From Vermamoeba vermiformis (lineage: Eukaryota), in assembly GCA_045837725.1 (NCBI GenBank), contig JBEWZL010000219.1:124001-188000 (forward strand): a DNA stretch of 64,000 nt, given 5' to 3'. The position numbers and the translations under genes are program-made. Positions 12,701 through 36,200 of this stretch are shown here, piece after piece. The stretch's first letter is position 1. Every line of letters begins with the position of its first letter. The notes under the pieces are model-generated. The model searched no databases, had not been told where the DNA came from, and saw only the letters and a program-made list of their open reading frames with translations.

Positions 12701-15700
12701 CATGGGCTTGGCGAGCTCACTGGACTCGCGGCCAGGCATGGTGATGGTGTTCCACAAGCGCTGTTGCAGGAGCAGCTGTTGTTGTTCGAGTGCAGTCACG
12801 TGTGCTGCAGGATCACAGGCCTTGGCGAGGTCAATCAGCTGCGCGAACTTGTCCGCACGAATCTCCTTCAGCACCAACTGCACGCCATCGGGACAGTGCG
12901 TGAGGTACTGACTCACTGCACTCAATGCGCGCATTTCCAGCTCTGAGAGCAGCCAGCGGAGGTGCGAGTGCGGCTGTGCGCTGTTGTTGGTGTTGACATT
13001 GTTGTCGGACACTGCACCACTGCCCACCAGCGAGAGATGCGTCTGACTGCCGCGCTTCTTGTGCTCGCGCTTGCGAATGAGTGCCATGAGGTGTGGCAGC
13101 GCGTCTCTCATGATGCTGGAGTAGAACTGCGCGTCCATCACTTGCTCCACGAGTGCCACGAGACACTGCACGGAGAGGCGATGTGGACTGGGGTGCGAGG
13201 TCTCTTCATCGTCAAACACCACTTCAGCCTTGGTGCTCATGTGCGGCTGATACTCCACCACCGTACCGCGACGCTTGCCCTCCAAGTTGGACTTGATCTG
13301 CACCCGACCACCGACGCGAATGTCTTCGTCGAATCCACCCAACACGCAGAGTGCAGCGAGGGCAATGTGGTAGTACTCCATGAGGGCGCTGAGATCGGCA
13401 GGTGAAGCGGTGCTGATGCGTTCATAGAGCTCACTCAGCTTGTTCAGTGCGCTGATCACACCACTGCGCAGTGCATTCAACCACGAGGCCTGACGCGAGG
13501 CACTGAGGGTGCGCAACAGATTGATGTACTCTGCAGCCAGGCCCTCCGCACTGTGTCCATTGACCCAGTAGATCGGATTGTCAGCCAGCTTTTGCTTGTT
13601 CTTGTGCTCCTCTTCGCTCGAGGCACGCACTGCTTGATCACCTGCCACGGGAGCGATGGTGACTGCACCGCCCAGCAGTGTGATGGCTTGCGCGAGTTTG
13701 TTGCACTGATCGAGCGTGCCAGTGCGCAGCTGTGCCGAGCCCGTGGCATTCATCTCCGCGATCACTTCTTGGGCCTTGGACTCGGTGTTCTGCTGCGCCA
13801 GTCGACCGAAGAATGCAGCACCCAGCGCGAGTTGTGGCTGTTGCTGCTGGGGCGGTGGTGCGTTGAAGAAGTCTGCACCGAGGGCATTGACACATGTCTC
13901 TACGAGTCGCTTGTGCCCCAACAGCCAGGTGTTGAGCGACACCACGTACTGCATGTCACGCTTCTTGGCTGCCTGTTCCTCTTCATCGTCAGACTCGCTG
14001 CCCGCAGTGTTCGTAGCTGCACTGCTCTCCACTTGCATCGCATCACTGCTGTCAGCGGCGTTGTTGTTGTTGTTGGCAGTCTTGGCGCGATCGTGGCGCA
14101 CAAACTTGCCGTGGAACAGCCACTTGCCAATCTGCGCGAGACACTTGTCAATCAGCTGCTGCTGTCCCTCGTGTTGCAGCGGCAACAAGCGACGACACAA
14201 GCGCAGCACGAGTCTCTGAGTGCGCGGTGAGGACTGGGCGTGCAACAACGAGAGCAGATTGTCAATGTTCTCCTTGCGCGAGAGTGACTTGAGCCGCGAG
14301 GAGGAGGTGCCGAGCAAGTGCAGCAGTGAGAGCAGCTGATAGCACTGCTCTTCAGTGTCTTCTTCGAGGGGATTGTTGCTGCTCGGACGTGCAGTCAAGT
14401 GCTCGGAGATGCGCTTGAGTTCATCGCACATGAGATCAAAGATCTGATCTTGCAGCTTGGAGATGGCCGAGCGATCGATTATGTGGCCACTCGGATCATC
14501 GCCTTGCAGACTCCAATGCACCACTTGCGTGGCGAGCAGTCTGAATGCAGTCCAAGCGGAGAGGCGCAACATGTTCTGTCGCTTCTGCACCTCTGCGAGT
14601 TCCTCCTCTTCCTCCTGCTTCTCTTTGAGTTCAATGCCGCCACTGCCTGCCATGTTCACCTCTTCGTCGCTCAATCGCACGCGCACGGTCGATGAAGTGC
14701 TCAGCACTGGTCTCTCAGCAATGATCTGACGCAGCAGCGGGAACACACGAGCGCGCATCAAGAGCTGCACGTCAAAGTGTTGATAGGACAGGCCACAGAT
14801 GTTCAGGGCCAGCAGTCGCGAGGTCAGATCTAGCGACGCATCACTCAACAGTGCCGTCATGCGCTCAAACAGTCCTACAAAGGCCTCGCTGACTTGATGC
14901 GAGAGCTCTTCACCGCAGGTCTGTATATTGTCGAGGTAGTGACCCCCTTCAGTGGTGGCCAGAGGTTTGCCGAGTGAGCCGAGCACTTGATGGCGCACGG
15001 AGCCGAAGCTGCATGCACTCAACAACTGCTGCAAGTAATGCAGACCTTGGACGCGCGATCGAGCACGAGTGGTGTGCAGTTTGAATGTGCGCTCGAGCTC
15101 CTTGACGCTGAGTGCGGACATGCAGAACGAGATGACGCCCTGCAGCGGTGAGCGCGGTGGCTCGTCTTTGAGCAGTCGCACCAGTCCGTGCTTGTTGGCC
15201 AGCAGCGCACTGTCCTGCCACTCCTTCCAGCTCTTGTACGCCTGCAGCCACTTGCGCAGTGCTTTGACGCGCTGACTGAAGTCTTTGTTCTTCTGCTCCT
15301 CGTGTGCGCGCTGTCGCTCCTTGGCGAGCGTGGCGTCAGTCTGCGGCAACAGCATGGAGCGCGAGAGACTCTGCTGCTGACTCAACTCGTTCTCGTCGCG
15401 CGAGGGCACGCGTTGACTGGCACGCAGCGCATGGGCCTTGTGATCGCGTGGTCCAGCGAATGGATTGGCACTGTCTGCGGAGGGTGATCGCACGCGTCGC
15501 ATGGCAGGCACGACACGCAACAAGAGACGTGCGCGCTCAATGACGGGTGTGGCAATCACTTCGTAGGGGTTCTGAGGGACAGCAGCATTGTCTAGCTGCA
15601 TGGCATTCGCATCAGCAGGGGTGCTAGCACTGATCTCCTCTTGCAACTTGTTCCACAAGCGCTTGACGGTCTCATTCGTGTCCATCAGATCGAACTCCAC

Positions 15701-18700
15701 GGCCTTGAGCTCGCACAGCTCCATCAGACGCTGTTGATCTTGACGGAAGCCATCGAACACGGAGGTATCGTTCGGCTTCTCTTGCACGGCAATCTGCCAC
15801 TCTTTCTGCATCTGACCGCGACGCATCAACCACGACACGACTTGCTGCGACTTCTTGCTGATCAGCTGCAGCTTGCCCTGTGTGTCTGCAGTGGGCTCTT
15901 TGCCCTCCAACAACAGCTGCACGGTTTGTTGTGCCTCAGCCATCAGTCCCATCTGCTTCAAGATGGCGGCAATGATCACGCGCTCAGCACGCTCCAGCGG
16001 TTTCTTCGCGAGGGGCGGCAACATGGCGCGTCCCTTGTTGGTCTTGATCCACTCGTACAGCTTGCTGGCGGGCAGTTGTTCGTCGATGAACTGCTCGATG
16101 AAGGACTGCACAGTGGCCGCACTGCCCTCTTCCAGTCCACCGTTCAGCAGACGTGTCTCCAGCCAGGGCTGCAAGCTCTTCTCGCGCTCACTGAGGGCCT
16201 CGCCTTCAATCAGCGTGGCCGCGCACTTGGCCGCGAGCAGTGTGATGCTGTTCTCGAGCTCCAGCAGCCAGTGCGAGATGATGGCTGGTCCTCCACCCAC
16301 AGCACTGCCCGACACCTCGCTCACAATGCACTTGAAGCCCCAGCGCTGCGGCTGTGCGGCGTTGTTGGGATCAGGACGCGTGCTGGCATTGAACACAAAA
16401 GTGAGGGTGTCGCCCTTGATGACAATGCTCTGCTTGGGGAAGTTGTTGCCGCTGAAGAAGAGTGGTGCCCCGTCCTTGAGCACGGGTCTGTCGAGCTTGG
16501 GCGATGCAAACAACTGCAGCACATCGCTCGTGGGACTCATCGTGCGACTGCGCGGATCAAAGCGAATGCTGAGTGCTGCTGCGCCAGGGATCGCCACCGT
16601 CTCTTTGAACTGATTCTTGCCGTGCGGATAAGGGTGCTTGGTCTCGATGATGATGCGCTTGTCTTTCTTGTTGGACAAGCGACGCAAGTAGCGCTGATCG
16701 GCGGCAGTGGCTGCAGACACATGTCGACACATGTTGTCGAGCTGTTTGATGAGGGGAATCAGCTTGGGCACCACACCGGACACGAGCTGCGTGTCCTTGA
16801 CGTGCACGGGACGACACAGCGCAGTCACCATGCTGGGCAACACCACGCCGAGCAGTGAGCAGCGCAGTGTGGCATCGCTCCACTCACTGGTGCCCGCAGC
16901 GAGCAGTGCAGTGACGAGATGTGTGCACTGATCCAGCACCGCATCGCAGTACTCCAGGGTGACTTGACGGCCCCAGGTGTTGAGCAACACTTCGCGCTGC
17001 AAGGAGAGCAACAGCTTGACTGCAGGGCTGAGCAACAGTTCCGCGCGGTGCGGCTGTGCGAGCTGTTGCTGCACCTGTTTGGCGGTGTGCGCGATCAACT
17101 GCGACAACAACTTGCTGGCCAGTGGGTGTGGCGTGAGTGTGGACTGCGCGAGTTCTTTGGTCTTGGTGCTCTCTTTGAGCGCGGTACTGCTCTCTTTGAC
17201 GGCATCGTCGGTCAACACATCGCCCACACGATACCACTCGGAGAGCGCGAGCACGAGTTGATGGCACAGTTGACGACTGCCCTCGCTGCTGGCACTGAGT
17301 AGTGCGAGACAGCACTCAATCTGCGCGGATGAAGTCGGGTAGAAGAAGATGAAGCCTGTCACCAGCACATTCATCGCTTCCTCGCGCACTTGATGGCGCA
17401 GTGCTGACACCACGACCTGATCGTCATCTACAAATCTTTGCAACAATTCACGCAAGGTGGTGGCAATGGACTTCATGTCTGTGCGATTCAGTCAGCCAGA
17501 TGTGTCGTATCGATACAATAACAGGAGTACTCACCGAGGTGCGCAGTTTCAAAGCACTTGTTCAAGTCGCGCTCGTGTGTAATCAGCTCGTGCATGTTCA
17601 CGCGCAACAGTCGCAAGCAAGCGAGCAGCGTGTAGCTCATCATCTCAGGATTGAGCTTCATGCACTCGAGGCTGTGTTGCACGATGGATTGCAACAGTTT
17701 GATCACGTGGGGCGAAGACTGCACGGTGAAGTAGTACTGCGAATCATCTTCGTCGTCTGAAATTCATTTGACACGTGTCAATCACCGTCATCAATCGCGT
17801 GTCACCAAGTGTCACTTACCGTCCAGCTCCGTGTCTGTGATGCGTGTCACGTGATAAGCAGGGTGTTGACGCGCGAGTCTGTTCATGTGTGACAGCAGCA
17901 CGAGCAATGTATTCAGCGCGGAAAAACTGTCACGTGGCTTGCCAGCGAGTTCAAGCTTGTATTCCTCGCGACTCAAGACCTCTTCAGGCGAGTACTTGAC
18001 GAGGGTGGAGTGCTCCGCGGACTCGTGCACGCAGGGTGGACTGAGATCGATCCAAGACACCACGCGCTTGTTGGAGGGCAAGTAGCTCCACACGCGACGA
18101 TGGAGTGTGTCGTAGTTGAGTGTCAGACCCCAGGGCTCGTTGTTGATCGGCACTTCGGCGATGTACTTGCCGTCTTGCAGCGAGAACAAGCGCGCACGAT
18201 TGAGCACGGCATTGTTCGGGATCACCATGCTGGCAGCACCAGTGCCCTTGCGTTGTGCAGTGAGCTGTGGCCCCAGCAACACGAGCTCTGCACCGTTCGT
18301 GTAGACCAGCGATCGCTCCCACACACTGGACACGCTCTGTGCGGGCTCACTTGTCTTCAGTTCAAAGCGACGCACGAGTGCTGCTGCACCGTCAATCAGC
18401 GCGTGATCTGTCGCACGCCATTGCGCGCAGTCGTATTGTTCGACATGCACCGTGCCGTCACTCGTACTAGCGCGCACGGGCTCAGCGGGCACGGGTGATG
18501 CATCATCTTCAGCCTGTTCATCGACCTCTTGTTGCTCCCACGCTGCTGGCTCTTGATCCTCTGCGGGCTCATTGCCCTCATTGTCCGAGTTGTCATCTTC
18601 GTCGTTCTCGGGCTCATCGTCTTCATCGCTGCCCGATTCAGAGCTCGATTCCTCGTCTTGTCGTGTCATGGCAGCACGTTGTTCTTCGTTGCGCACACTG

Positions 18701-20438
18701 CTCGCACTCGTGGCTGGCTGCAGTGCGGTGCTGGCGTTGACTGCGCGGCTGTCTTTCTTCTTGCCGAGCAGATACAGATAGCGGCCATCGCTGATCAGCA
18801 CGGCATTGGCTGGATCAATCAGCGAGTTGTTGAGCTGCACGCGACACGACTCCTCCAGCGTGTTGCTCGTGAGCTGTGCGAGAGTGGGCCAGAGCGGTGC
18901 CTTGTTCACAGCCTCGCTGACAGCGTTGACACTCTCGTCAGTCTCGTGCGGGGACTCGTCGTTGTTGCTCGCTGCAGGACTGGGCATCAACGTGCTCGAG
19001 AAGTACCACACAGCGTCCTGCACACTGGCGAGGGAGGTGTTGTTGTCGGCAGTGCGATAGTCGTTGCGCGAGTGATAGATGTGACCGCGAATGGTGCCCA
19101 TGAGTCCCGTGCCAATCTTGAACAGACCTTGATTGGTCTCGTGCAGATACAAATAGGCCCCGTCAGTGGCCAGGGCTGCAGTGCGGTGATCGCTCACCAG
19201 GGCAATGCCATTCACTGCTTGTGAGGCCACGAGTTGTTGCGCGGCCTTGTTCAAGTTGAATGTGCTCTGTGACTCGGCAGTGGTGTTGAGCTGCGTGTCA
19301 ATGTACCACGTGCTCTCCAAGCCGCGCTCAGTCATCACGGCGTGCTCTTGATCGCGCTTGTATTCGTCGAGCTGCTTCAAGAATGTGCCGATCTTCAGTC
19401 CCACTTCGACGTCACGCATCGCACTCTCATCGCTGACACCGCGTTAGTGCATTGTTACGACCAGTAGTAGTAGGACTCACCTGAGAGCAGTGCGCTTGAC
19501 AATGTTGAACAAGACGTCAATCACGCGCAACAAGTAGTGTGCCTCACCGCGCGACACGGCGAGACCAATCAGCGCGGTCACAGCTTGTGCCTTGTAGTCT
19601 GCATCCACGCGGTACTCGTAGTCGCGTATGAGGCGATGAATGAACTCGTTGAATGCATCGAGACAGTCCTGCGGCTCGTCTCTGAGTGCGAGGGGCGGCA
19701 GCGCACTGATGACACTGATGATCATGTCCAGCGTCTGCTTGCACAGCTGTTGATATTGCACGCCGGGCACGCGACTCAGCGACTCCAGCAGTGGAAACAA
19801 GGTCAACACACCCAAGCGCACCACGACAGGCACTGTTTGACCCTCGTGTTCGGGCAGTACGCGAGTTCCATGCGCAGGCTTGGCGCGCTTTTTGCGCAGC
19901 TTGTCCCGCATGTAGGCAGCGTGGAGATACTTCTGCACGCGCAATCGCTTCTTGAGGGCATTCTCGAACGAGGACGACGAGTCACTCGATACTGCACAGG
20001 CACTCAACAGCTCTTTGGTCCACTGACTGATGGCCTTCTTGTTGAACTGTTGTCGATCCACATCTACAAGACCAACAAGTTTGTAGGCTAAATCATGATC
20101 CTAAAAATATGTTAATATATTAATACTTAGAATAGCTCGTGCAGCTTCTATTGGTTGATTACAATTCCGAAAAAAATGAATTTCTGTTTGAAAAAATAAA
20201 AAATTACAGAAAATATGGAAAGTCAATTTCCTTCACTGCCGTCATATTATACCTGTTTTTCTTTATCGCGCTTAGACTTTTTAGATGCATCTTGTTGCTT
20301 GTCTTGCTCGTCTTCATTTTTGGATTCATCCAGATCATTATACTTTATATCTACAATTCCTTCATTAAACAATAGGCTCTCTTCTTTAATAACTAGCCAT
20401 TGTTGATCTAATTCCTGTTCTAGACCTGGCTGGCTCAT
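6714..20438 (-). CDS. Giant (~4400 aa) HECT E3 ubiquitin ligase, HECTD4-like, with SPRY, UBA and UIM-like motifs
   Basis: Exons approx. 20438-20253, 20100-19481, 19432-17820, 17756-17535, 17478-10611 and 10557-6714 join in frame at GT-AG sites. C-terminal HECT ('FKGEHVEGEGGPYRQ', 'FPKADTCFFNLMLPEYS'). SPRY ('YYFEVTI...ISIG...VIGCG...IYFTMDGEDLG'). UBA ('LIGMGYDMKKARKAL...AVMWLLEN'). N-terminal 'ATDGAYLY...LFKIGTG..GT..GHIY'. Confidence 0.88.
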
Positions 20439-20850
20439 TTTACTTGAGCTAAGTCAGATGTGAGAACTTCTCTGAAAGTGATTTTGTTTAAAGTAAGACT
20501 CGTACACGTAGAGAAATACTACACGAAGTGATTAAATACAAAGGTTATATATAGAAGAAGTATTTCTCTTTGTGTGGTCTTCCTCAAGTATTTGGTAACA
20601 AAAAAAATAGAACTGTCAGTGTCAGTCTTTGTCTGCGACCAATAAGGAGCTGTTACTTAGGGTCATTTTGCATGGTATTAACATTCGCACGGGAATTTAT
20701 TTCCCCGAACTAGGTATTCGGAGCTATTCACAAAATTGGACAGTTGGTCCGGTGGGTTGATACATCAATAATGATAATTACAGTTGACTGATCGCAGTGC
20801 AATTGTATATAGCGAGAGTTGATTATACACAGTGTGGTTGAGGTCAGTGC

Positions 20851-22052
20851 TCAATTGGTGCTCTTCTTCTTGTCCGCACCCAAGATATGTTTCATGTACT
20901 CGTACGTGGACCAGCAGATGCCAGCAGACATGGAGTGAAACACCATGCGTGGCACTACTCCGCGTGAATAGCCTGCCCAGCCCTCTTCGCGCCATATCGT
21001 CTTGAGCGCATCCACCATGCCGTGGTACATCTTGCCCACGTCACCTTGTGTCTGCAAGCGTGTCTTGGCGACATCGAGCGGATTGGACAGTGCTGCCGCC
21101 GTCACTCCCGCACCACCACCTGCCAGTACGTGCGCGAGGGGGTCGTACGCATCGGGATCTGACTTGAAAAATCGACGCAGTGTCTCGTAAGTGGCAAAGT
21201 AGACAAAGTTGTAGGGCACATTCATGGTGAGGGTGGTGGTGTAGCCAGCGTAGAGTGCACCGACACCTTCGCTCTTGATCACGCGCTGAATGCAGTCAAT
21301 GTTGCCCTTGTACGGTATCAGTGACAGCTGTCGCTTCTGTTTCACTGCATCCATCGGCACCAACACGGCATCACTCATCAGCTAGCGAGAGCAGCAATGT
21401 CAATACGGACTGCATGGTATTCGTGTGCAGCAAGGGACTTACCGTGGCCAATATACCCGCAGAGCCTGTCTGCACGAATTGATAGGGATTTTCTTTGTCA
21501 CCACCAAACTTCTTTTTGAAGAATTCGTAGCCAGTGAAGTATATCGCATGGGCTGGCGCTATTAATAACAACAGTTTGGGTTAGTAAATTGACGTGTAAT
21601 GAGGGAACCAGTCAAACACCGAAAATTGGTAATTCACATGAGTTATCGCTAAATTACAGTACTGAAGGTACTATAATAAATGGGACTAACAAAAATAATT
21701 ATTAAATTATGGTAATTTTTGAGACGAGCTAGATCTAGATCACATATATTTACCTGCACCAATAGCCACAGCTGTAACACCCCTAAATAACCCCAAAAAG
21801 CCGCGCTCTCTGATTACTTGGCGAGTGGTTTCAGTAACGCCCAAGTACGGCTGGTTCGCTCGATGTGCTTGTACGTGAGTCTGTCAAACCGCAAAATTTA
21901 GTAAAAAATGCGAAAAATATTATCTAAGCAAAGGCAAGTACTTTGATAGTGTCCACGGGGTACATGCCACAATGTTCGATAGTACCCGCCGTCGCTCCTG
22001 CGATCAGATGCACCACTGAGGATGAAACTTCACTATCGTCAATCTCAGCCAT
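20851..22052 (-). CDS. Mitochondrial carrier, mitoferrin (Mrs3/4, SLC25A37/28-like)
   Basis: 'HLIAGATAGTIEHCGMYPVDTIKTH', 'APAHAIYFTGYE', 'YAGYTTTLTMNVPY', 'NPLDVAKTRLQT'. The carrier repeats carry the mitoferrin-typical EH and PAHA motifs. Confidence 0.88.
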
Positions 22053-22261
22053 CGTCGTAGTATAACTAGGCACAAAGCAAAATTAACGGATCCCAAACCA
22101 AACCGTACAGCCGCAGAAACCACGCGACATGAAATCTCGTTGTTTTGCCTATTATAGAAGTCTGACCTTTGCACAGGCGAGACTCTCGCCTTTTTCGTTG
22201 ATTGGACGAAAAATTTTTCAGCACTCCAACTCGTAATTCAAATTAAGCACACTGCAACAAT

Positions 22262-23355
22262 ATGCAAGAAACTGGTGGATTCAATTTTGATAACGTTAGA
22301 AGGTTCGTTATTCCCTGATTCTGCACTCAGGTGGATTTGACAAATAATTAATGTTTATTTGTTTTAGAAATACCTTTTTGGAGCAAAGCGGATATAAAGC
22401 TCCCAAAGCAACTAAGACGGGTACTACTATCGTTGGATTAATTTACAAGGTATTTAGGGCGGTGCTAAAATTAAAGAAAAAATTTTCAAATTATTTGTCA
22501 ATTAGGATGGCATTGTCTTAGGAGCTGATACTCGAGCGACAGAAGGATCGATTGTAGCAGATAAAAAATGCGAGAAGATTCACTATATTGCACCTAATAT
22601 TTGGTGTTGCGGTGCTGGTACTGCTGCGGATACAGAGAACGTGACTGGTACGTATGAAGAATGATGCGAGTTATATACTATCGAGCCTATAATCGCGTTA
22701 GAGCTGCAAATAGACCTGCCACACCGAGTCTTATTAACCATCTCTCCCTATTCTAGCGCTGATCAGCTCGCAGTTAGCGCTGCACAGACTGGCAGTGGGC
22801 CGTCAATCGCGCGTGGACACAGCGATGACCATGTTGAAGCAGATGTTGTTCAAGTATCAGGGTCACATCAGTGCCGCACTCATTCTCGGCGGTGTAGACC
22901 ACACAGGCCCCTCGCTGTACACCATCTATCCGCACGGCAGTGTCGACTCCTTGCCCTACGTCACCATGGGCTCGGGCTCACTCGCTGCCATGGCCGTGTT
23001 CGAGGCCGAGTTCAGACCCGACTTGGAGCTCGAGGACGCCAAGCAGCTGGTGTGTCGCGCAGTGGAAGCAGGTATCTACAACGACTTGGGCTCCGGTGGC
23101 AATGTGGACTTGGTGGTGATCACGCGTCAGGGCACGGAACAATTCAAGCCGTTCAAAGCGGACAACTCGCGCTTGTATCGTGCGGGCAATTACTCGTTCA
23201 AGCCTGGCACCACACGTATGTAACGCGTGCTCTAAGCTGTGCGATGTGTATGCGTACTAATGCACTTGTTTGATGTAGCGGTGTTGAAGACAGAAATTGT
23301 GTCGATTGACAAATTAGTGGTCACATCCACTCAAGTGACACCCATGGAGATTTAG
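22262..23355 (+). CDS. PSMB7: 20S proteasome subunit beta-2 (Pup1/PSMB7)
   Basis: Propeptide '[11 protein letters not shown]', cleavage 'KTG|TTIVG', '[19 protein letters not shown]', 'CCGAGTAAD', 'MGSGSLAAM', 'GIYNDLGSG'. Confidence 0.95.
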
Positions 23356-23588
23356 AGAAGCTCTATGCCCAACAACAACCCTTGTATTTACTGTATTAAA
23401 GTAATCACCAACCCCCTCTCGCAGCGTACAATCTTGTTGGACCTCGTTCACTGAAAATCAGGGCCGATTTGTCAAATCAACATTATGCTCAGTCGGTTAG
23501 TTTCATACATGCTGCGTCAAGTGAACACCACAACCACAAATTTATTTACCACAATACTACTGGTGTATGTATCTTCACACAGATATAT

Positions 23589-24393
23589 ATGCAGATTAAT
23601 TTAGAGCCCATTACCGTGCATGACCGCACATTCCTCGTGGTGCGGGACGATCTCGTTCTCGGGGGCTCTAAAAGTCGTGCTCTGCAGCCACTAATACGCA
23701 ATCATCCTGATATTACCGAATATGTATATGCAGGACCTACTACTGGTCACGCTCAAATCGCATTAGCGTTGAACTGCGCGCAACAAGGCAAACGAGCGCG
23801 CATCTTTTGCGTCGGTCCTTTAACACCGATCCAGACCTTCATTCGCGCGCAGCCAGGTGTGACAGTCGTCCACCGCGAATATGCGTCGCTTAAAAAGGTG
23901 CAGCGCATGGCTGAGGAATATTGTCAGAAGCAAGATCAGTCTGTCTTTCTAGTGCCCTTCGGATTTGACTTCCCCGAGTTCCGACAATTGTTAGAAGGTA
24001 ATTATCTAGTGTTAATAATTGGGTACCTGGTGATAACCTCGATTGATAGAGAACATTCAACAGAACATGCCACTAGCACTGCGGATCAGTCCACCGAAGC
24101 GTGTCTGGGTAGTAGCGGGCTCAGGCACATTACTAAGCATATTATACAGAGTATTTCCGACTTCTCAATTTGGTGTAGTGCAAGTCGGCAAAAAGATTTG
24201 GCCTGATCAGCTCGAACTAGATCGCACTCAATTATACGTCGCCGAAGAGAAGTTTTTCGAAGTGAGCAAACAACCACCACCGTACCCCAGTGTTGCAACA
24301 TATGACGCAAAAGTTTGGCAGTTTGTTCTGCAGCACGGCGAGAACGGAGACCTAGTGTGGAATGTCGCAGCTGATTTGCCGGGCCACGGTTAG
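23589..24393 (+). CDS. Small (~250 aa) fold-type-II PLP-dependent enzyme (D-cysteine desulfhydrase/ACC-deaminase-like fold), one intron 23998-24049
   Basis: Exons 23589-23997 and 24050-24393 total 753 nt and join in frame. Motifs 'VVRDDLVLGGSKSRAL' (RDD..GG.K Schiff-base Lys), 'VAGSGTL' (phosphate-binding Gly loop), 'SVATYDAKVW', 'LVWNVA'. Confidence 0.75.
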
Positions 24394-24928
24394 CACTGCA
24401 CTGGCATTATGCTGGTGGACGATGTTGTGGTGCACTTGGACCATTTGGAACGCGAACCATTGTGAGAGAGACGTAATGACAGAAGAAGCGCAGTCAGCTT
24501 TACTTTACCATGAGTTTCATTAATTAATAAAACGAAGTGTAACGGGACACTTTCAAAGGTGCAGTTTATATATATATATTTGGCACGCTACTCCATCTGC
24601 GAGTCTCACTATTACAATACGTGTAGATTGTTTCTGGTTTGCCACAGCAGCGCCTGGAGGCCGCAAAATAGGAACGAAAGCTTGGTATACAGGATGCACA
24701 CCAAATCTTTGTTTGGATTCCCAGAACTACTTCTACCAGGATAGAGGAGCCCCATGCTGGCAGCGTGTAGCTGAGAGGCGCAGTTGCAACACAAAAGCGT
24801 TGTTGATGCTGTTTTTCCCGTTCCGAGATTTTTTCCCGATGTTATCACAGAACTTCTGTTAGGACGCCAGCCTGCCGCACCTCCACCACACATCTATCTA
24901 TGGTTGCTTCGATCCATCCCTGAGGAAG

Positions 24929-25580
24929 TGGCGGACGTCCCGTCCGGCAAAAATTGGACGTCCGCCACGGACATTGCGTCCGCCGACCATACATCATATA
25001 GTATGAAGATTTTAACAAGATTTCTATATGCCATGGATATGATTAAGCATATCCCTTCATTATAACAAGGTCTGCCACCATACTGGACAAAGTTACAACA
25101 TAAAAAAGTATAGATGATTCAAAAAAATTTTCATAGCTAGGTGACTATGTATTGTAGCCAAAGTTCAGGGTTGCATAAAATACGTATAGTTGTGTTGTAC
25201 CAAACATGTGCTGGTGGGTGGGTTCATACTTAATGCTGAAAATTTACAAATTGCTGCCACTACAATATCTTTGATGATTACTTATATTTTCTTGTTAGAA
25301 AGTGATAGATCTAGGTGTTTCCAAAGTTTCAATGGCATTGCAGCATATAGAACAAAGTTCTAGTACTTAAGTTCTTTGCAGAACATTGCCATTTTCAGCC
25401 TCTGGCGTTTAGCCCAAAGCCTCCTGATGCCAATAGTAGTGCTTCTTGGGTCCACTAATGCTAATGGCAAAGTTTGGTATAAGTTGGTAAATTACTAACA
25501 TCAGCGGATGCAGCGTGACCTTGGACGGACGCAATGTCCACGGACGGACGAAAAATTTTTGGTGGACGGGACGTCCGCCA
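24929..25580. mobile_element. Non-autonomous TIR element (MITE-like), ~650 bp
   Basis: Imperfect ~54-bp terminal inverted repeats: 24929-24982 (tggcggacgtcccgtcc...ggacattgcgtccg) versus the reverse complement of 25526-25580. AT-rich non-coding interior. No clear TSD or transposase. Confidence 0.6.
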
Positions 25581-25646
25581 GTGGATAGCTATGTGACACA
25601 TTAAAGCCTATTTTCGTGTAGCATAACTTTTAGTTGTATTCCTCAC

Positions 25647-25711
25647 GCACTGATTGTTGATGATTACCAACATCTGTATACAGTCCCAGGTTCAATTCCT
25701 GCAATCTGCCA
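25647..25711 (+). pseudogene. tRNA-like 3' fragment (T-arm/B-box)
   Basis: 'caggttcaattcctg' forms a T-stem-loop with GGTTCAATTCC, followed by 'caatctgcca'. No convincing D or anticodon arm. Confidence 0.25.
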
Positions 25712-26054
25712 TTTATATATTTTTCGGGTGTCAGTTATTAGTGGTTTGTATCAGCCAATGGTGCAGTAATATGTTACTAATGCCTCATATGTACAGACGC
25801 ACCAGTTGGTGACTTGTACCATACCTACATACCCGGCCACAAAGGGTTGGCTGGCCACGCTGGCCAACTTGGCCTGGCCATCCTCCTTTGTATCGTGCAG
25901 TGCTGTGAATCCAAACTTGGGGGTTTGCAGCACAAAGAACAAAGTTCTGGTGCTTCATTTCTTTGTAGAACATTACATTATTTTTTCCGTCTCCAGTGCT
26001 TAACCCAAAGCTGCTTGGTGCCAAAAGTGCTTCTTGTTCATGCAGTAATCCATG

Positions 26055-26330
26055 GACGCATCATTCAGGGGTGGCTGCATCCTCTGACGCTAGTAATTGA
26101 CCAACTTTACCAAACGTTGCCTGTAGCCCCAACGGACCCAGCTGAGGTTCTTTGCAGAACAATGCAATTTCAGCCTCCAGTGCGCCCAAAGCCTCCTGAT
26201 GGCAATAGCAATAAGTTGGTCAATTAATTCTTCAGCGGATGACCACACCACCCCTGACGGACACAGGACAGTCTCTGTATGGTGGCGGACGTCATTTTTG
26301 CCAGACAGGACGCCTGCTGCTTACAGGATG
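26055..26330. repeat. Diverged copies of the same repeat family forming a fold-back
   Basis: 26147-26240 resembles 25371-25510 (gttctttgcagaaca; gcccaaagcctcctgatg; ataagttggt). Inverted arms tcaggggtgg 26065 / ccacccctga 26248 and aattgaccaactt 26095 / aagttggtcaatt 26213. The reverse complement of 26281-26330 resembles 24915-24968. Confidence 0.65.
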
Positions 26331-26619
26331 TCCTCTTTGTACTGTATGGCGGCACAATGTTTTTGAGACAGGATTCTGATTCAGAATAGATTGGGCGACA
26401 TCCCCTATCCTCTGATTGGGCAACCCTTTGTGAGGTTACTCATGCTGTGGCCAGTTCCCTGGTACAACAGGACAAATTATAGTCCCACCGACTGGCCCCT
26501 CACGTTCAGTCAGGGCCTGCAGTTCCTAGTTGTACTGATGTAAGGGCAGCCAATAACATTTCATGCTGAGAGGACAAAGTTACTCAGAAAATCTTGTCAG
26601 TAGTAATATTGTTGATTTA

Positions 26620-29600
26620 TTAGGTTTTCTTAAATTTCAGAATATCCAACAACTGGAAAATGATACTGCGGTAGCTGTCCAGTACTGGTTCACAAGCATC
26701 CTGTACATATCGTTTGTGATTGTCATTGACCAGATCAGGTATGTCTACAACAGGATTTTGAAGGTCTGATACTGCTGTTATGGAAAGAGTGGAGAGGTGG
26801 TGCTTAGTTGATTCTAATAGGGCAGGCAAGTCGCGTGTCAATTGAGTCTCAACAAGTGCGGAAAGTGTCTTCAAGTCGTCCTTAGTCTCCGTGTACTGTC
26901 CACGTGTTAGTTCATTCAGCCTGCACATTTGTTGGTACTTACAGCAGTCTTGAGTTCATCTGAGCCCTTCTTCAGTCGCGCAGGGTACGTGTGATTGAGC
27001 AGTGCGAAGCTCATGCGCGCCGACTGCAACACGAGAGCGAGATATTTGTTCACCAGTCTCAGCCACACGGAGAACTTGCTCAATTCTTTTTCACCTTGCT
27101 TGATCAGTTCCCACGCATCTGATCAATGAACGCAGTTAGAGACACACGGATATTGACGCCCTTGCAGCAATAGCACATACCGTGGAGCAGAGTCTTGAGT
27201 GCGGTGAGTGCGCTCTTGACCTTGCCAATCAGTGTCTTGCAGTCCACGCCCTCGCCGCCAGTGCTCAGTGCAGCAGTGAACTGATTCAACAACAAATACA
27301 GGTCAAAATTGGCCAGCAATGTGCTCCAAATCAGCTTGTCTTGGGCTGCAAACTCTGCCGTGCCAAGTGTGTATTCTGTCAGGCCGCGCAGTGGGTGTGT
27401 GGCAGCTGTCACTGGTGCGTGCTCGCTGTTGACAGGTGTCACGGCGTGCAAGACAGTGTCAGCGGGGATCAGCTGCGCATCAATCAGGGCACGGTGCAGA
27501 GTGGCGAGTGCAGTGCCGAGTGACTGCACGTGCGACTCATCTAACACGGCGCTCTCATTGCTCGGTGTGGCTTGACGTGCACCGCGAGTGGGAGCTTTGG
27601 CATTGGCAGGGGGTGGTGCGAGTGACTTGATGATGGCTCTGTTGGCGAGGTAGAAGTGCAGCAGCACACGCAAGTACTGGGCTTGCACGTACACGCGCCA
27701 GTCATCGGCGGCATTGCGCACTGTGAGCACGGGGTTCGTGGGGTCTACAGTGCGGTGCACATCGAGGTCCCACTCGAACAGCACTGTCATGTCGTAGTTG
27801 CAGGTGAGGGCGCGAATGTCTGCAAGTTGGTGGGGCAGATCTTTGCAGATGAGTGTCTCGCAGTCAGCAAAGAAGTGCAAACATTCGGAGAGCGAGTTGC
27901 AGCTCTTGACGTAGCTGACCATGAGCTGCGCTTGTTGTGCCTTGACGAGTTGAATGGAATGACTCAAGCGGCGCTCAAAGGCGATCAGTTCCCCAATCTT
28001 GGCGTAGGTGCCGTTCTTGTAGGCCTCCAACACGTACTCCGGAGTCTGATGTGCGTCAGTGCTGCGTCGAGTGGCTGGTAAGTACTCACCGTTTTCTTGT
28101 TGTCGTCGTGAAAGGCGATGATCTTGGCGATCACGTGCTCCGCTTCGTTGTAGGCAGCAAAGTCCATCAATCGATCGAACACGAGATGTGACAGCGTGTC
28201 GTATTGCATGTGCTTGATCTCGAGCTCTTTGAACAGCGTGAATGCAGCAGGCAGTGCCCCGAGTGCTGCGTACAACATGACAGCGAGGTATTTGAACTCA
28301 AAGTTGTGCGGACTGACTGCCAGTGCGCGCTTCAATATCGTCAGCGAGGTGCGCAGTGTGTTGGTGTCATCGCGATGGGAGCCTGCGAGTGCCACCAGCC
28401 AGGCCAGGTACGTGGCTGCGTCGTCACCAGGATGACGCTCTGAGGGCGCTACTTTGATGGGCAACTTGACGGCCTGTTGCCACACCTCGTAGAGTGCAGT
28501 GGGCGAGTAGATGAGCTGTTGCGGACTGTGTTGCGCGCTGTTGAACTGAGCGACGAGTTCCAGCGCGACGAGATTGAGTTGACGTGTCAGCCAGTCAATG
28601 TGACTCGGCAGCGCACTCGTGTCCTCAGCACTCACGCCACTCAGACCTGATTTCACCTCGCTGCAGTACGCCCGACACTGGTCCAGACACCGTGTCACGT
28701 GCTCGGTGTCGATCAGGGCAGCGAGATACATGCGGAGATCACGCCAGCACGAGGGTCGGTGTGAGAATCGTTTGAAGTATTCGGTGACGAGTGCACTGAG
28801 CACGGCCTGTTGAGTGGTGGCAGTGAACTGTGTCAGCACACGTGACTCGAGCTCGAGGTGTGCGAGATACGGCGCACGACTGAGTGAAGGGCATGAGATG
28901 AGGTGCGATAATAAGCAGTGACTTACTAGTGGCTGTGCTTAGCTTGCAGTGCTGCGAGCCAGTCACGTGCTTGTGTCAACAGCGGGTCATTGACATCTTT
29001 GACACGTGTCATCAGTGCATCCAAGTAGCCCGTGTAGTACTGCCACTCATCGGCACTATATTTCACCAGTCAGAGCGTAACAGATATAGTACCTTGGAGT
29101 GGTCTCACCTGTGCGTGTCAATCAGCTGTTGGTAGATCTGCATCGCCTCTTCGTGCTGGTGCAGTTTGATGTGCGCATGAGCCAGGGCCAGGTCTCGTTC
29201 GTGTGCGAGGGGCATCAACTTGGCAGCGTGTTCACCGCGCACTGTGCCGATCACTTCGCTGTGCTTGTGTTGTTGTCGCAATAGCTGCAAATATAGCTCC
29301 ATATCTGCAAACGAATCAACTGGTCAGCGAGGGTCTCGATTGCCCACGGAGTTCAGCACTCACCCTGCGCAGTGGCCTTGTCCTTCTTCATCTGACCCTC
29401 AATGAAGCGCTGCACAATCTCGAGCTGTGTGTTGGCACCCTCGCTCTGAATGGACAGCGCGAGAGCGACGAGCGACCAGAACATGTAGCGCTCTTCTTTG
29501 AACACTTGGAACAGCTTGGAGGCGTGGGTGCGCTGTTGCGTGAGGTCGTTGGTGCGAATGTAGGCACCGAAGAGCTGTTGACCAATGTGCTTCTGATTGG

Positions 29601-30095
29601 CCAGATCTGTCTTGCCGCGCATGGGGTGGTTCCAAGCGAGGGTGAAGAATTCTTGAATTTTGTCTGGACGACGCGTGATGCGATAAGTGAGCAGTACATT
29701 GTGCATAATGAAACCACCCTCTTCTTTGCTGCTGAGTAAATCAATGGGTGTTTGCTTCTTGGGATCCAGCAGACGTGCAGTCACCTCATCTGCAATTTTA
29801 ACAGCTTCTTCAACGTGCAACTGTTGTGCTGACACTACTGCTTGAGCGCTCTATAGTCGTAGGGTGTTACGGAAAGAAACGTTGTAGTGGAATGAACAAG
29901 ATTAATTATAATAGAAAATTTTTAATAATAATGCCAAATGCACGAAAAAATTATTTGTCTAATTACCTTTACAAGGTCAGAGTTTGGAAATTCCTTTTGT
30001 AGATCTGCCATGGATTTGTTGATCTTTTTCCAGGCCGGATTCACCTCTTGCGAGGCTTCAAAAATAGAGCGCAGTTTGTTTCTAATACGTTCCAT
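26620..30095 (-). CDS. NAA25: NatB auxiliary subunit NAA25/Mdm20 (multi-exon)
   Basis: 'YFKRFSHRPSCWRDL', 'SPHNFEFK', 'LEIKHMQYDTLSHL', 'AYKNGTYAKIGELIAFERRLSHS' match NAA25/MDM20 conserved blocks. N-terminal TPR region 'QLFGAYIR...QQ..A.KL...YMFW'. Confidence 0.88.
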
Positions 30096-30222
30096 TGATT
30101 TACACCACCACCCCTTTGTTGGATCTCGTGAAAAAATGACAAACAAAAAAGAGCACAGCTGCGCGCCATTTTTTGAATTAAAGCAACGCAGCAACACCAC
30201 CGAGGTATGATGCAGTAATATT

Positions 30223-33200
30223 ATGCAAGCAGTAGAGAGCTATTTAGACGAGCTCGTGTGGATTGCAGAAAATCCCACGAATACGACAGCAGCAACGGAT
30301 GCAGTCACAGTGGTGCTTGATCTCAAAAATGTAGTATTTAATGAAATATTAGAGCAGGATTTTGGTAAGAAATTGTAGAGATCGCGAATTGTAACAATTG
30401 TAATAATAATTTCTTCAAAATGCTCCTTTGCTAATCTGTTTCAACTTAGCGCTATGTAGTGCGATGCTCTTAAATTCAGACAAAAGCATATTGAATTTCT
30501 TACAACGGACTGCAACACCAAAACACAAAGATCTAGCTCGCGCTCGAGAGCACATGTTTGACTTCCTCGGCGAGTACGTCAAGCTGCTCGGTCAATCAGT
30601 GCAGGAATACGCACTTGCCATCAAGGTATATACATAGGTCCCTATTGTCAGTGCCTTATGTGTCACTTCAATTACAGGAAACTTGTCTGGGGGCCTTTCG
30701 TCGCGAGTTGTCCAATCGCGCTAAAGTCGCTACATTTGCTCCCATATTGAACATGATTGAACTGCGCATGCAATCTCTCGATGCAGAGAAGCTGGGTGTG
30801 CGCGAGATGGCGGAAATATACCTTAAAGATTTCACGTGCGGCAAATCCTCGCAAACAGTCAAGTCCTGGACCCTGCAAATGTTGGGCAGTTTCGCGGAAT
30901 ATTTCCCCGAGCACATGTTTGACAAGTCCAAGCAGCTGCTGACCCTGTTCTCAGACTCGCTGCTGAAACAATTCAAATCGAAGAAGCCAGACTTTCAATT
31001 GATTGCCGGCAGTGTCAAAGGTCTCACCTCGCTGCTCGTGCACTTTAGCGGCGATTTCTTGGCAGATCAGAAGACAGTGGAGTCAATCTACAAGTACATC
31101 TGTTTGGGCTGTTTGAATCCACCTCCTGGCCTCAAGACTTACGACATACCCAAAGGTACTGTTGCAGTAGTTTGATATTATACTTGCGATACTCAATGTG
31201 ACATTGCAATGCAGCGGCTCTGAGTCTCGTCGCCAAGCACGCGCGCCTATTCAAAGAGTACTTGACCGAACAGAGCGAGAAGATCTACAAGTACATCACC
31301 GTGTTCTGCACGCACAAGAATCGTGCCGTGCGCAAACACGCCTTTCCCGCGCTAGATGCATTTCTGACGCAGGTGTCGCACGAGATCATTTCTGATGCGC
31401 GCAGTGCTGAGAGCAATCGCGAGACATTCAAAGTAAGTGCTGACACAGTGTCCATTTGATTACGTGACTCACACGCCTGGCAGTTCTTCATGCGCGAGTT
31501 CTGGAATGGTCTGGACAGTCGCACGAGTGGCATGTACGACATATCGATGTGTATTCGCGGCTTTGGTCTGTTTGCCAAGGCCACCAAGCGCTTCTTGGGC
31601 GTGCAAGAGGTGAAGAAGATGGCGCAGAAGATGATCTCGTTTCAACACCGCTACTTCTCGCAGTACGTATTCGACAGACTGCTGGTGTATATAGGGTGCT
31701 AATTGTGTCATGTCAGGGCATCAATATTGCAAGTAGAAGACACCATTTCACATTTGCCGAGCTTCATCGCCTCATTTGCGAATATTCTGCTCGAGCTGAA
31801 TGAAGTCGATGACACCTACGTCGATCACCTCGAGAATGTGATTGGCACTTTCTTCTTGGTCTATCCGCAGCTCTACGATGTCAAGCGCTGGTCCTATTAC
31901 ATGGCCATCTCTCGCTTGTTCGTCGCGCTCTACTCCAAGGGCTCAGCACTGCAGAATCTCTTGTCGCGCATTGTATTTCAGGGCCTGACATTGACCTGCT
32001 CCAAACCGATCGTGAAACAATCACCTGAGAGCTCTTCGGCCACTCAACCTGCGGAATATTACACGGAGTATCAAGATTTGTGGAGAAATTTGTTGAATCC
32101 ACGCATCTCTGATGACTTGGAATTCAGTGAACATCAGCGCAAAGATTTGTGCAAGATCATCTACAACGAGTTCATGCAGTCCATCATTCGCATGCTGCAG
32201 AAGCTCGTGTTGCAGTACAATGTAGTGAAGGAGAGTGCTCAAGGGGAAGAGAAGGCTGATGACAAAGACAAAGAAGCAGAGCTGCTAGCGACATCGGAGG
32301 TCAATCCGAATCTGTTGAAGCCAGTGGTGCCCAAGGACTTTGAGTTGTTTTTGAATCTCGTCAACTTCTGCAAGATGATACTGCCCCAATTGCACCAAGA
32401 TCTGTTCGAGAAGTGGATATACATCTTTGCCAAGGAGATTATCATCAAGTCCAATCAGTTCCCACTCGTTTCGGGATTTTACAAGCTGTTGGGTGTCACA
32501 CTCAAAGTGTCGGATCAGCTCAAGTATTTTGACCAGATGGATGAAGCAGTGCCTGAGATCGATGCCATGACCGACATTGACGATGAACCAGCTAGCAAAG
32601 CAACTAATATGGACCTGCAGACCAAGCGCGTGTGCTACACACTCATCTCCAAGTTCATTCAAGAGGTCGAGACACGCATGAAGCAGTACAAAGACGAGCT
32701 CTTGGCTTCGTGCTTGAGTCTCGTGCTCAGTGTGCCTAAAGCGTTCGTGACCATCGCTGACAAAGTGGCGAGTCTGCAGTTGTGTCTCAAGCTCGGTGAG
32801 TCGTACTGGCCCCTCGCTTGTGTGGCTCTCGATGCCCTGGAGCAGTGGACCAAGGCCCTCGCTGCACAGCTCAAGCCACATCTCTCGCGCATATTGCCGA
32901 GCTTCAACAGCTATCTCAAAGCCACAGCCAGCAATGCGACTTATGTGCAAGTGCAGCCTGGCCAACAGAGTGCCCTGCAGCGCATTGAAGGTGTGAGCGC
33001 ACTCACCGCCGATGGTGAAGACGACAAGAAGCTCAAGTCGGAGATACAACTGCGCATGTTGCGCTTGTTGGCTCAGCTCGGTGGTGACAATGTCAATCTG
33101 ATTCAAGATGTGGATCTCGCGACATCGAGCAGCGAGACATCGATTGCGTGGGACACTGTGAAGCGAGTCAAGTTTGTCGTGCCCTTTCAAGACGTCAAGC

Positions 33201-36200
33201 CAGACGTGTGGCTCGATGATCTCTTGCCGCGCATTGTAGAGCTCGCTGAAGAGGCCTCTGATCGTCAAACCAAAGTCGCTGCATGCGAGCTGTTGCACTC
33301 AGTGGTGCTCTACATGATAGGCTCCAATGCCAAGCTCGAACCAGTGCCCGTGCACAAGATCTACGCGCGCCTATTCCCAGCGATGATTCGTCTCGCGGTG
33401 GATGTCGAACAAGTGACGCGCCAACTGTTTGAACCGCTGATGATGCAAGTGATTCACTGGTTCACCAAGAATCAGACCGAAGAGAACACGGAGACTATGA
33501 CACTGCTCGACAGCATCATCGAGTGCGTGGCCTCACCGAGTGATGGCGCAGTGCGTGAGTTCAGTGCCAAGTGCTTGACTGAATTCCTCAAGTGGTCCAT
33601 CAAGCAGAGCAGCAAAAAGCAGCAGGAGAAGAATCCGTTCAATGCCAAGTCACTGTTCAAGCGCGTCTACTCGCTCATGCACCATCCCAATCCTTACAAG
33701 CGCATGGGGGCCTATTTGACTGTCAAATCGCTCTACCGCGTGTTCCGTGAAGAGCAAGCCCTGGTAGATCAATTCGTATTGGAACTCTCGCACGCACTCT
33801 TGTTCTCCATGAGACTCGCACAGCACGACGACACCTCGCTGGGCACTGCACGCTTGGCACTGAGCGTGTTGGAGGCCCTCACACGCATCATTGAGCGCCA
33901 CGTCAGCATGCTGTCCAAGCCCAACAGTGCTCGCCGTGCTCACGCAGATTTGAACGCCTTTCTCTCGTGGGTGTTGAGTCAGACGGCACGATCTGAGCGG
34001 GTAGTGCGTCGTGCGGCGCAGGGTCTGATTGCACGCTTGACGGCGCCGAATGCAGCAGCGTGGGTGCAGAAACACGTGCTGCCTCGTCGACCTCTGAACA
34101 CCCTCATAGCACTGTTTGAGGGGGGTGTGGAGTACGAGGAGCAAGAAGAGCAAGATGCACCGCGCGCAGTGGTGGCACATAAAGACGCACTGCCCAGCTT
34201 GCCAGATCTGTCCGGTGTGATGACGTGGCTGAGTCGTGTGCAGGCCAGTCTCGATCTCTGGACCTGGGCATTCTCAACCAATATGCTGACCCCTGGGGAG
34301 GTGCTGGCCGTCAAGAATGGCTCGCGGTTGATGGGTTGGTGCGCGCACTTCTTGGACGCACTATCAACTGCGATCAGTGGTCACCGATGAACACAGCGCG
34401 CACTACTATCTGTTCAGACCCCTCACACCCCTCGAGATCGATCAGTTCTTCACGCAGCAGTGCTCCATCCTGCACCTCTACTTCAAGCTGTTGCACGTCT
34501 TGCTGGACAAGCACAAACAAGCGAGCATGGAGATCTTGTTGCCCTCGTTCAACGAGTCCTTCTTCAAGCTGTTCTTCACCTCCATTCTGGCCCCGGAACA
34601 GCTGGGATTTGTGGCCAACAAGATCTCGCAGCAGAAGAAGATGATGAGCCCTCACCTGCAACATGTGTCGCTTGTTCACTCAAGTGCTGCCCAAGAGTCA
34701 AGCAGAGCTCATGAGGAAGGTGTTGCGCCACATGTTGAATCAGCCAGAGATGAACTTGCTCACCCTCGACTTCAAGCACTCCAATCTCGATGTGGAGCGT
34801 GCGCGATGTCTCGTGCAGGGCTATGCACAACTCCACGCGTGCGAGCTGTTGATGGACTCGCTGCCCAAGAACACCAATCTCACCGAGCACTTGTTGGTGC
34901 AGGCATTCGATCACAGCGACAACTACACGCCCCTCGAGATGTCTGTGGGCGGATTGACGCTGCAACTCACCTTCTCGCTGCATCCGAGTGAGAAGCACTT
35001 GCACGCACTCATCACTGCCCTCATCAAGCTCTTGTTGGACGAGACACTCGTAGAAGATCGTTCACAGCCCAGTCTCGAAGAGTTGCAATCCTCTGTGCGA
35101 GCTTCACAGCGCAACGAAAACGATGAAGGGGACAACGTGCCGAATATCGACAGCACCACTGTGAATGTGAAGAAGTCGACCAAGGGCGAAGTGTTTTACA
35201 AGAACTTTCGCGAGCAAATTGACGACTTTATTGCCAACAATATGCAGTACTTTGTGAAGCCCATTATGACGCACATCCACAAGAACTATCTCATGTTCCG
35301 CGTGCTGCTCAATGTAGTGGATCGTCAAGTGCGTCACCGCAATGCCAACAGCAAGGCAGTGGTGCAGCTGGTGATTGCGCACTTGTCGCAGCTGAATGCG
35401 TGGATCAAGCTCGAGAGCACGCAAGAACAGAAAGAGAGCGCGTTGGAGCTGTTGAAGCGATTGATGCAGGTGAGTGCCAGTGCCGAGTGCGTGTCATTTG
35501 CGCGCGAGGTGTTGTGCACCTTCATGGCCCGTGCCATGCCCTTGCTGTTCAAGACAGACGTGCTCGATCTGTTGCCGGCACTGCTGGCTGCCCAGCACAC
35601 CAGCGAGCAGCACAAGAAACAGATTCGTGAGCGCATTAGAGAGCTGATCACGTACGACTTCCCCGTGCAATCCACCGATCTGCCGCAAGACTCCGCTGTG
35701 TACAACGAGTACATCACCTGCTTGAACAAGTTGATGCAGGTGCTGGTGCAGACAGGGGATCTGATGCTGCTAGAAGAGCTGTACCCGATCTTCAGAGAGC
35801 GCAGACATCGCCACATGCCTCACTTGGAGCAGCAGTTGAGTCAGTTCGTCAAGACGCTCAAGCACCGTGCTGAACACGCCGTGCACTGCTTCAATATGAT
35901 CATGACTGTAGTGGCTGACCCCACCATGACTGCGTGGTTGAAGTACAACTTGACGCGTCACATCTTGTTGCCGCTGTACGAATTGCTGCCCCTCAACCAT
36001 CAGATCCAGGTGATGCAACAACAGATCCACTTGTTGGTGAAGACCATCAACATTGAAGAGCTCGACAACAACAAGTCCTCGCTGAGTGCCAAGCAATCCC
36101 AGAGCTCCACTGACGACACACTCACCGCGGCGGATGTGATTGATCGCATCTGTGCCCTCAATCTGATTCAGGTCTTGTACCAGTGTCTGCCCTCCACGGC

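Follow-up and report, generated by a model that had tools for sequence, protein, structure and literature searches.

A spliced nuclear gene for a predicted minimal PLP enzyme of phage and giant-virus affinity in Vermamoeba vermiformis

The PLP gene and its neighbourhood

The window, the whole 64-kb stretch of Vermamoeba vermiformis DNA analysed here, contains a short PLP enzyme gene on its forward strand, which starts with an ATG at 23589, ends with a stop at 24393 and comprises 250 codons plus the stop. Exon 1 (23589..23997, + strand) encodes residues 1-136 and carries the Schiff-base lysine K28 within GGSKSR, a YAGP..GxAQ loop and PFG. Exon 2 (24050..24393, + strand) supplies the phosphate-binding loop GSGT, PPYP, the family motif YDAKxW, WNV and the stop. 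The two are separated by a phase 1 GT-AG intron of 52 nt (GTAATT...GATAG; 23998..24049, + strand). The original prediction had described a two-exon PLP gene of about 250 amino acids; its coordinates and reading frame were reproduced in the window, and all six motifs quoted for the protein were found in its two exons.

Use of the 52-nt intron, which had likewise been predicted, is borne out by two sequences from which the intron is missing, an RNA-type contig and a spliced EukProt protein. In the contig from run X11, which was taken as RNA by guess and also skips the introns of a neighbouring gene, positions 23639-23995 are joined directly to 24048-24307; this 23995/24048 junction is a 52-nt skip, offset by an AG common to both sides of the intron. 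The EukProt entry P0003 from V. vermiformis is the spliced 250-aa protein, with 98% identity in exon 1. Raw RNA reads of run X21, which comes from a strain 90-95% alike to the window, covered the PLP gene at a depth of about 3-8; the proteasome gene reached about 70, and the downstream spacer had a depth of 0; the PLP intron joint was not seen among the joints listed for this run. The PLP gene is a genuine, spliced and expressed nuclear gene.

Pfam searches bore out the housekeeping neighbours named in the prediction. Upstream lies a spliced and expressed gene for a proteasome beta subunit, which we take to be PSMB7 (main exon 22738..23223, + strand; Pfam Proteasome, 3e-27; blastn match to positions 1-379 of the metagenome contig L085). 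Downstream, on the minus strand, are the exons of the NAA25/MDM20 gene (26620..29850; Pfam NatB_MDM20; 77% blastn identity to L085 over 1888 nt). Further genes of the window are ordinary large eukaryotic ones, encoding a SPRY/UBA/HECT ligase (6717-19443), DNA-PKcs (31703-43315), GCN1 (43764-52165) and an ATG17-like protein (61329-63704).

Contig L085 carries an orthologue of the PLP gene between the same two genes, with 89% amino-acid identity and a 59-nt intron at the same position. Comparison of the two genes gave a pN of 0.057 and a pS of 0.743. Given this synteny, the shared intron and the pN and pS values, we consider the PLP gene to be old within the amoeba lineage and under strong purifying selection.

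The repeat island predicted beside the PLP gene proved to be a MITE-like, high-copy, non-coding element (24929..25580, without assigned strand) with 36-nt terminal inverted repeats, and is not part of the PLP gene. Read depth was examined over 22300-26700; the summed depth of the element was 19,000-35,000 versus about 80 in run X1, several hundred-fold above single-copy level. A second, partial copy at 25750-26310 is 75-83% similar to the first. The element has no match at the orthologous locus in L085, where the spacer between the PLP gene and NAA25 (L085:1360-3990) consists of 2.6 kb of unrelated sequence whose broken ORFs look, by eye, transposon-derived. The lineages of the window and of L085 thus acquired separate insertions between the PLP gene and NAA25. 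Because the element is absent from L085, the repeat island has no link to the origin of the PLP gene, and the transposon-like island is ruled out as a vehicle of gene transfer.

Fold, family and origin of the encoded protein

On its structural model and its alignments, the amoeba protein is a fold-type-II PLP enzyme with an intact PLP site. The AF2 model of P0003 (pLDDT 94.5) has a TrpB-like two-domain fold, and every PDB match listed for it is of fold II, with TM scores up to 0.80. Among solved structures, an ACCD homologue, CJ0600 and DCyD come closest in fold, at 13-18% identity. By sequence, a PDB search with exon 1 gave no match, and one with the family profile gave weak dehydratase and TrpB matches only. 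Across 314 family rows K28 is 99-100% conserved; it aligns to K51 of E. coli DcyD and to K36 of phage M6 gp52, whose sequence we checked by the agreement of K36 with PMC8989533. The G160-S161-G162 phosphate loop is also conserved in the amoeba protein. Of the earlier description of the protein as shorter than DCyD/ACCD and lacking their N-terminal arm, the first half stands and the second needs revision: in the alignment to E. coli DcyD (R19/R39, 20 residues fewer; S161/S195; Y221/Y287; N241/H314) the offsets grow along the chain, so the loss is only partly N-terminal and mostly internal.

Profile searches and phylogeny placed the amoeba protein near the gp52 family. PHROG 7093, the family of M6 gp52, was matched by both exons and by the whole protein (E 6.7e-25). 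The amoeba protein is 22% identical to gp52, with an HH probability of 97-98% over about 230 columns; the corresponding probabilities were 72% for E. coli DcyD and 12.6% for phage ViI gp226. The minimal PLP family to which it belongs comprises 1366 50%-clusters at E<=1e-10. In an IQ-TREE phylogeny (LG+G4) of 81 rows chosen from 324, this family formed one clade (support 99/96), whose sister (100/94) was a separate clade (100/100) made up of the M6 gp52 group, the root of the family/gp52 tree being a point at which long branches meet. ViI gp226 and four DCyD/ACCD sequences fell outside the gp52-plus-family group, DCyD/ACCD with support of 100/99; the DCyD/ACCD-type sequences in our trees were five, all of them bacterial and none eukaryotic.

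Within the minimal PLP family, the tree separates a group of phage sequences (86/85) from a clade of giant-virus plus protist sequences (100/93, 57 rows), within which the amoeba gene is nested. Its nearest located relatives are on the giant-virus MAG contigs L003 (46%), L145, L004 and L006, in all of which the PLP domain is fused to or beside a methyltransferase-like domain. The proposed membership in a phage and giant-virus clade therefore holds as far as PHROG 7093, the sister relationship to the gp52 group and the giant-virus relatives are concerned; the amoeba protein lies outside the gp52/gp226 clade proper. ESM Atlas matches to the family were viral clusters without function names, and a tblastn search of annotated phages with P0003 matched three records, with M6 and ViI not among them. 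In phage EKU1 (L143), M6-type hypermodification genes match as many frameshifted pieces, which suggests sequencing errors or decay.

The PLP gene is not unique to Vermamoeba, since at least four further named protists have homologues, namely Protostelium nocturnum, Planoprotostelium fungivorum, Choanoeca perplexa and Amorphochlora; another EukProt entry adds to these. The amoeba gene stands apart from its protist homologues: it falls in a group of 41 rows, many of them giant-virus sequences (89/83; inner node 87/91), with two environmental proteins, P0257 and P0252, as its tree neighbours (98/96). Viral contigs scanned with P0257 gave no match. When the three amoebozoans were forced together, the AU test did not reject a single amoebozoan clade (p=0.356). 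The GC3 of the PLP gene is 0.49, versus 0.63-0.77 in five neighbouring exons; three other ORFs in the window have values of 0.52-0.57. We lean towards an origin in which the amoeba acquired the PLP gene from a giant virus and retained it, the intron being gained afterwards; as a possible alternative, the gene is an old protist one that viruses later picked up.

'Cys/Met metabolism' is the name of a fold-I PLP family. A V. vermiformis protein of 203 aa, g16896, has as its best match an Orpheovirus PLP enzyme with this label (PMC7125106, supplementary file 5); because the label names a fold-I family, we do not count g16896 as this PLP gene or as a prior description of it. The term was not found in the supplements to the Orpheovirus paper (PMC5786535). 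V. vermiformis is reported to have 185 genes that best match giant viruses and that contain fewer introns than average (PMC7125106).

A methyltransferase-like partner and fusions to cap enzymes

The recurrent partner of the PLP family is an amino-methyltransferase-like domain with the motifs D-x-S-x-GWGDRL and SPP[YF]. Among 101 ORFs picked by hand as fusions or neighbours, Pfam recognised N6_N4_Mtase in 41. Of 80 IMG/VR loci, 10 had the partner fused, 63 had it no more than 1 kb away and two no more than 3 kb away; one had it at a greater distance and four lacked it, so that 75/80 had it fused or within 3 kb; these counts are partly circular, as the partner profiles were seeded from the same loci. 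After removal of redundancy, which reduced 199 loci to 51 clusters, the partner was fused or within 3 kb in 36 clusters and far in two, while 13 had none within the fetched DNA, on contigs that are partly short. In the giant-virus/protist clade, 9/23 locus clusters had no partner, as did 4/13 of the well-flanked ones, and 31 of 50 metagenome loci, many of them short, were without it. The partner was fused in 73 of 87 long relatives, a set found by the profile of the giant-virus/protist clade and hence uninformative on phages. A single-protein scan of prokaryotic genomes yielded eight loci, seven with a methyltransferase-like gene nearby. No GWGDRL/SPPY partner was found within the 64-kb amoeba window.

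The best sequence matches of the partner are DNA methylases. Its structure model resembles class I methyltransferases only generically (TrmR, Trm11, MnmM and TGS1, with TM about 0.4). In phages, family members are found next to ParB and terminase genes, in ParB-methylase-terminase loci, and the PLP domain of phage R6L interrupts a ParB-methylase; the phage context of ParB and terminase suggests DNA as the substrate. T4-like phages (L016, L047, L058 and relatives) carry the PLP gene and a methyltransferase between gp46/47 and replication genes; L047 bears a GVMAG label, yet is T4-like. In a phage subgroup (P0070, P0077, P0079, P0091, P0118 and P0143) the PLP domain is fused to a YunG-like domain, not to a methyltransferase.

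None of five database proteins of named protists (P0003, P0129, P0123, P0235 and P0251) is fused to the partner. Two metagenomic loci have a different layout. In L111-113 (L111:6330-10492), at 63% GC and with neighbours that look intron-split, the PLP domain is fused to a decayed methyltransferase, and the fusion gene lies tail to tail with an intact GWGDRL/SPPY methyltransferase. In L093-094 (L094:8642-10819), a single intronless ORF with the order WW-like repeat, MTase, PLP lies among genes for argininosuccinate lyase and PPR proteins. The WW-plus-MTase layout of this ORF resembles that of PCIF1. Gene context suggests that both are eukaryotic nuclear loci.

Precomputed Pfam annotation placed mRNA-cap enzyme domains in 16 of the 87 long relatives: PCIF1 in 11, a VP39-type 2'-O-MTase in three (one also with FtsJ), a capping enzyme in one and a TGS1-type domain in one. 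WW domains occur in two more of the 87, and one relative has a CCCH finger. The 13 cap or WW fusions that were placed in the tree occupy several positions in the giant-virus/protist clade. These fusions point to mRNA caps at least as much as to DNA; they may overstate the linkage to RNA, because giant viruses also fuse unrelated enzymes, as in the helicase-glycosyltransferase-PLP proteins of L101/L102.

Several giant-virus-like polyproteins combine these domains. P0356 has an N-terminus that by eye resembles an RNA-polymerase subunit, followed by PLP and PCIF1; P0382 joins a full capping enzyme to PLP; and P0386 contains FtsJ, PLP, methyltransferase and VP39-type domains. The usual motif IV of PCIF1-type domains is NPPF. 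In P0165, P0328 and P0356, a PCIF1-type domain is fused to PLP without a GWGDRL partner and its motif IV reads EPPR or SPPA; with motif IV so altered, these domains may serve as a transferase or as a cap-binding scaffold.

Proposed reaction, competing explanations and known systems

We propose that the amoeba gene encodes an active minimal PLP enzyme whose role is to tailor a side chain, similar to an amino acid, carried by a base, most likely in RNA at or near the mRNA cap, a reading that rests on sequence and analogy and to which we give a probability of roughly 0.4. The partner would first transfer the 3-amino-3-carboxypropyl (ACP) arm of SAM to an exocyclic amine, which the SPP[YF] motif of the partner suggests to be A-N6 or C-N4. 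The PLP enzyme would then bind the free alpha-amine and remove CO2, leaving an aminopropyl base. The substrate would be DNA in phages, whereas in the giant-virus/protist clade it would most likely be RNA, at the mRNA cap or close to it. For the amoeba, the partner would come from a gene outside the window or from a virus during infection.

Two precedents underlie this proposal. The substrate of M6 gp52 is an amino acid linked to a base in DNA, which the enzyme decarboxylates only when a primary alpha-amine is free (PMC8989533). By inference from sequence, the amoeba enzyme would work like gp52, yet outside the gp52 pathway. In MccD/MccE, ACP transfer from SAM by a methyltransferase fold is followed by PLP decarboxylation, with the reverse order also allowed (PMC10491745). 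By this analogy, the partner is most likely an ACP transferase rather than a methylase, because a methyl group would give the PLP enzyme nothing to act on; its structure model matches generic methyltransferases and its sequence matches DNA methylases. More tentatively, and with the odds against it, protists and giant viruses may share a two-enzyme system that writes aminopropyl, via aminocarboxypropyl, at the mRNA 5' end, with a decarboxylase derived from phage DNA-hypermodification enzymes and the amoeba gene as its host-side component. If true, this would be a new eukaryotic RNA mark, probably tied to a host-virus contest over cap recognition.

The same two-step chemistry could instead act on DNA, producing a hypermodified adenine or cytosine in the amoeba's own or in invading viral DNA. 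The only characterised relatives act on DNA (PMC8989533), the partner's best annotations are N6/N4 DNA methylases, and the phage members lie beside ParB and terminase genes. Against this, the clade of the amoeba gene adds cap-enzyme, WW and CCCH domains, and the modelled partner is as close to the tRNA and cap methyltransferases Trm11 and TGS1 as to any other match. We regard action on DNA as unlikely in the amoeba.

We give similarly low odds to a free small molecule as the substrate, for example through decarboxylation of SAM to an aminopropyl donor, or to a partner-less orphan that acts on, for example, modified viral nucleic acid. 'Route b' of MccE is still allowed for even in MccD/MccE (PMC10491745), the amoeba and other named protist proteins stand alone, with no partner in the window, and the partner is missing from the 9/23 locus clusters of the amoeba gene's clade noted above. 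However, M6 gp52 acts on a polymer (PMC8989533), the strong selection argues for a steady cellular substrate, and some missing partners are explained by short contigs.

A conventional, vertically inherited metabolic enzyme of the DCyD, ACC deaminase or dehydratase type is very improbable. It would fit the nearest solved folds, the presence of the gene in several protist lineages and its housekeeping neighbours. However, identity to those structures is only 13-18%, the NCBIfam models for DCyD, ACC deaminase and dehydratases matched neither exon, DCyD/ACCD lie outside with 100/99, and the H-x-G C-terminal region is replaced by WNV. Homology and phylogeny, proposed at the outset as the check on such a placement, did not put the amoeba protein within DCyD/ACCD or threonine dehydratases. 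Identity as a D-cysteine desulfhydrase or ACC deaminase is contradicted by the separate clade, the missing NCBIfam match and the HH probability of 72%.

The partners that the original prediction had named for a search, the amino-acid:DNA transferase (aGPT-Pplase) and the 5hmU kinase, were absent from all 210 family loci and from the window. Seven M6/ViI pathway queries run against 221 loci matched their source loci, three of four M6-group controls and one of 210 family loci, the last through a dUMP hydroxymethylase alone, and no M6/ViI pathway gene was found in the 64-kb window; because no flank exceeded 10 kb and the queries were single sequences, distant or dispersed 5hmU-pathway partners could be missed. 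Thymidine hypermodification through these two enzymes, as in M6 and ViI, is therefore the least credible explanation, despite PHROG 7093 and the YD.K.W and WN motifs common with gp52.

The amoeba gene shows that a sister family of gp52 includes a nuclear gene that is spliced and under selection, in an amoeba which is easy to culture and is host to many giant viruses. The 'methyltransferase' partner found across phages, giant viruses and protists probably does more than methylate, and the pair points to an undescribed chemical mark on DNA or on the ends of RNA, which eukaryotic cells may make as well. The reading predicts a base, A or C within caps or DNA, that is first +101 Da and then +57 Da heavier, in eukaryotes and in giant-virus mRNA. 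It also suggests that the annotation of many genes as DNA methylase or threonine dehydratase is a misreading. Should the amoeba have no partner, its PLP gene would be a candidate host factor with viral nucleic acid as its target.

PLP decarboxylases that act on polymeric nucleic acid are characterised only in phage thymidine hypermodification (PMC8989533). We found no paper on the PLP-methyltransferase pair or on eukaryotic members, subscription papers being outside our scope; Iyer et al. 2013 (NAR 41:7635) may mention PLP genes in methylase loci. The phage N6/N4 methylases of ParB-terminase loci (Iyer et al., PMC4738411) resemble our family in context, since its phage members lie in such ParB-methylase-terminase loci, and the PCIF1 cap m6A methylases (PMC7824862) do so through giant-virus family members fused to PCIF1 domains; 'PLP' or 'pyridoxal' appears in the text of neither paper, so that both leave the PLP partner undiscussed.

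Microcin C aminopropylation by MccD/MccE (PMC10491745) is alike in logic only, and we claim no homology; its acceptor is a small-molecule phosphate. DCyD and ACC deaminase (E. coli DcyD; PDB 1j0a, 4d8t and 9jqf) share the nearest solved fold, the R-D-D...GG.K.R region and the GSG loop with the amoeba protein, which differs in being about 78 residues shorter, in forming part of its own clade and in its C-terminal motif. ViI gp226, the O-seryl-thymidine decarboxylase, likewise has a PLP fold of type II and works on an amino acid linked to a base (PMC8989533), whereas its length of 424 aa, its HH probability of 12.6% and its branching outside the gp52-plus-family group set it apart. The closest known system is M6 gp52 (PHROG 7093), which decarboxylates C-alpha-glycinylthymidine in DNA (PMC8989533) and has the same minimal fold-II architecture, with K28 and K36 in register and YD.K.W and WN in common. 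The two differ in company and setting: gp52 is a phage gene product that sits with aGPT-Pplase, radical SAM and 5hmU kinase, whereas the amoeba protein, 22% identical to it, comes from an intron-bearing eukaryotic nuclear gene whose family sits with an amino-methyltransferase-like partner.
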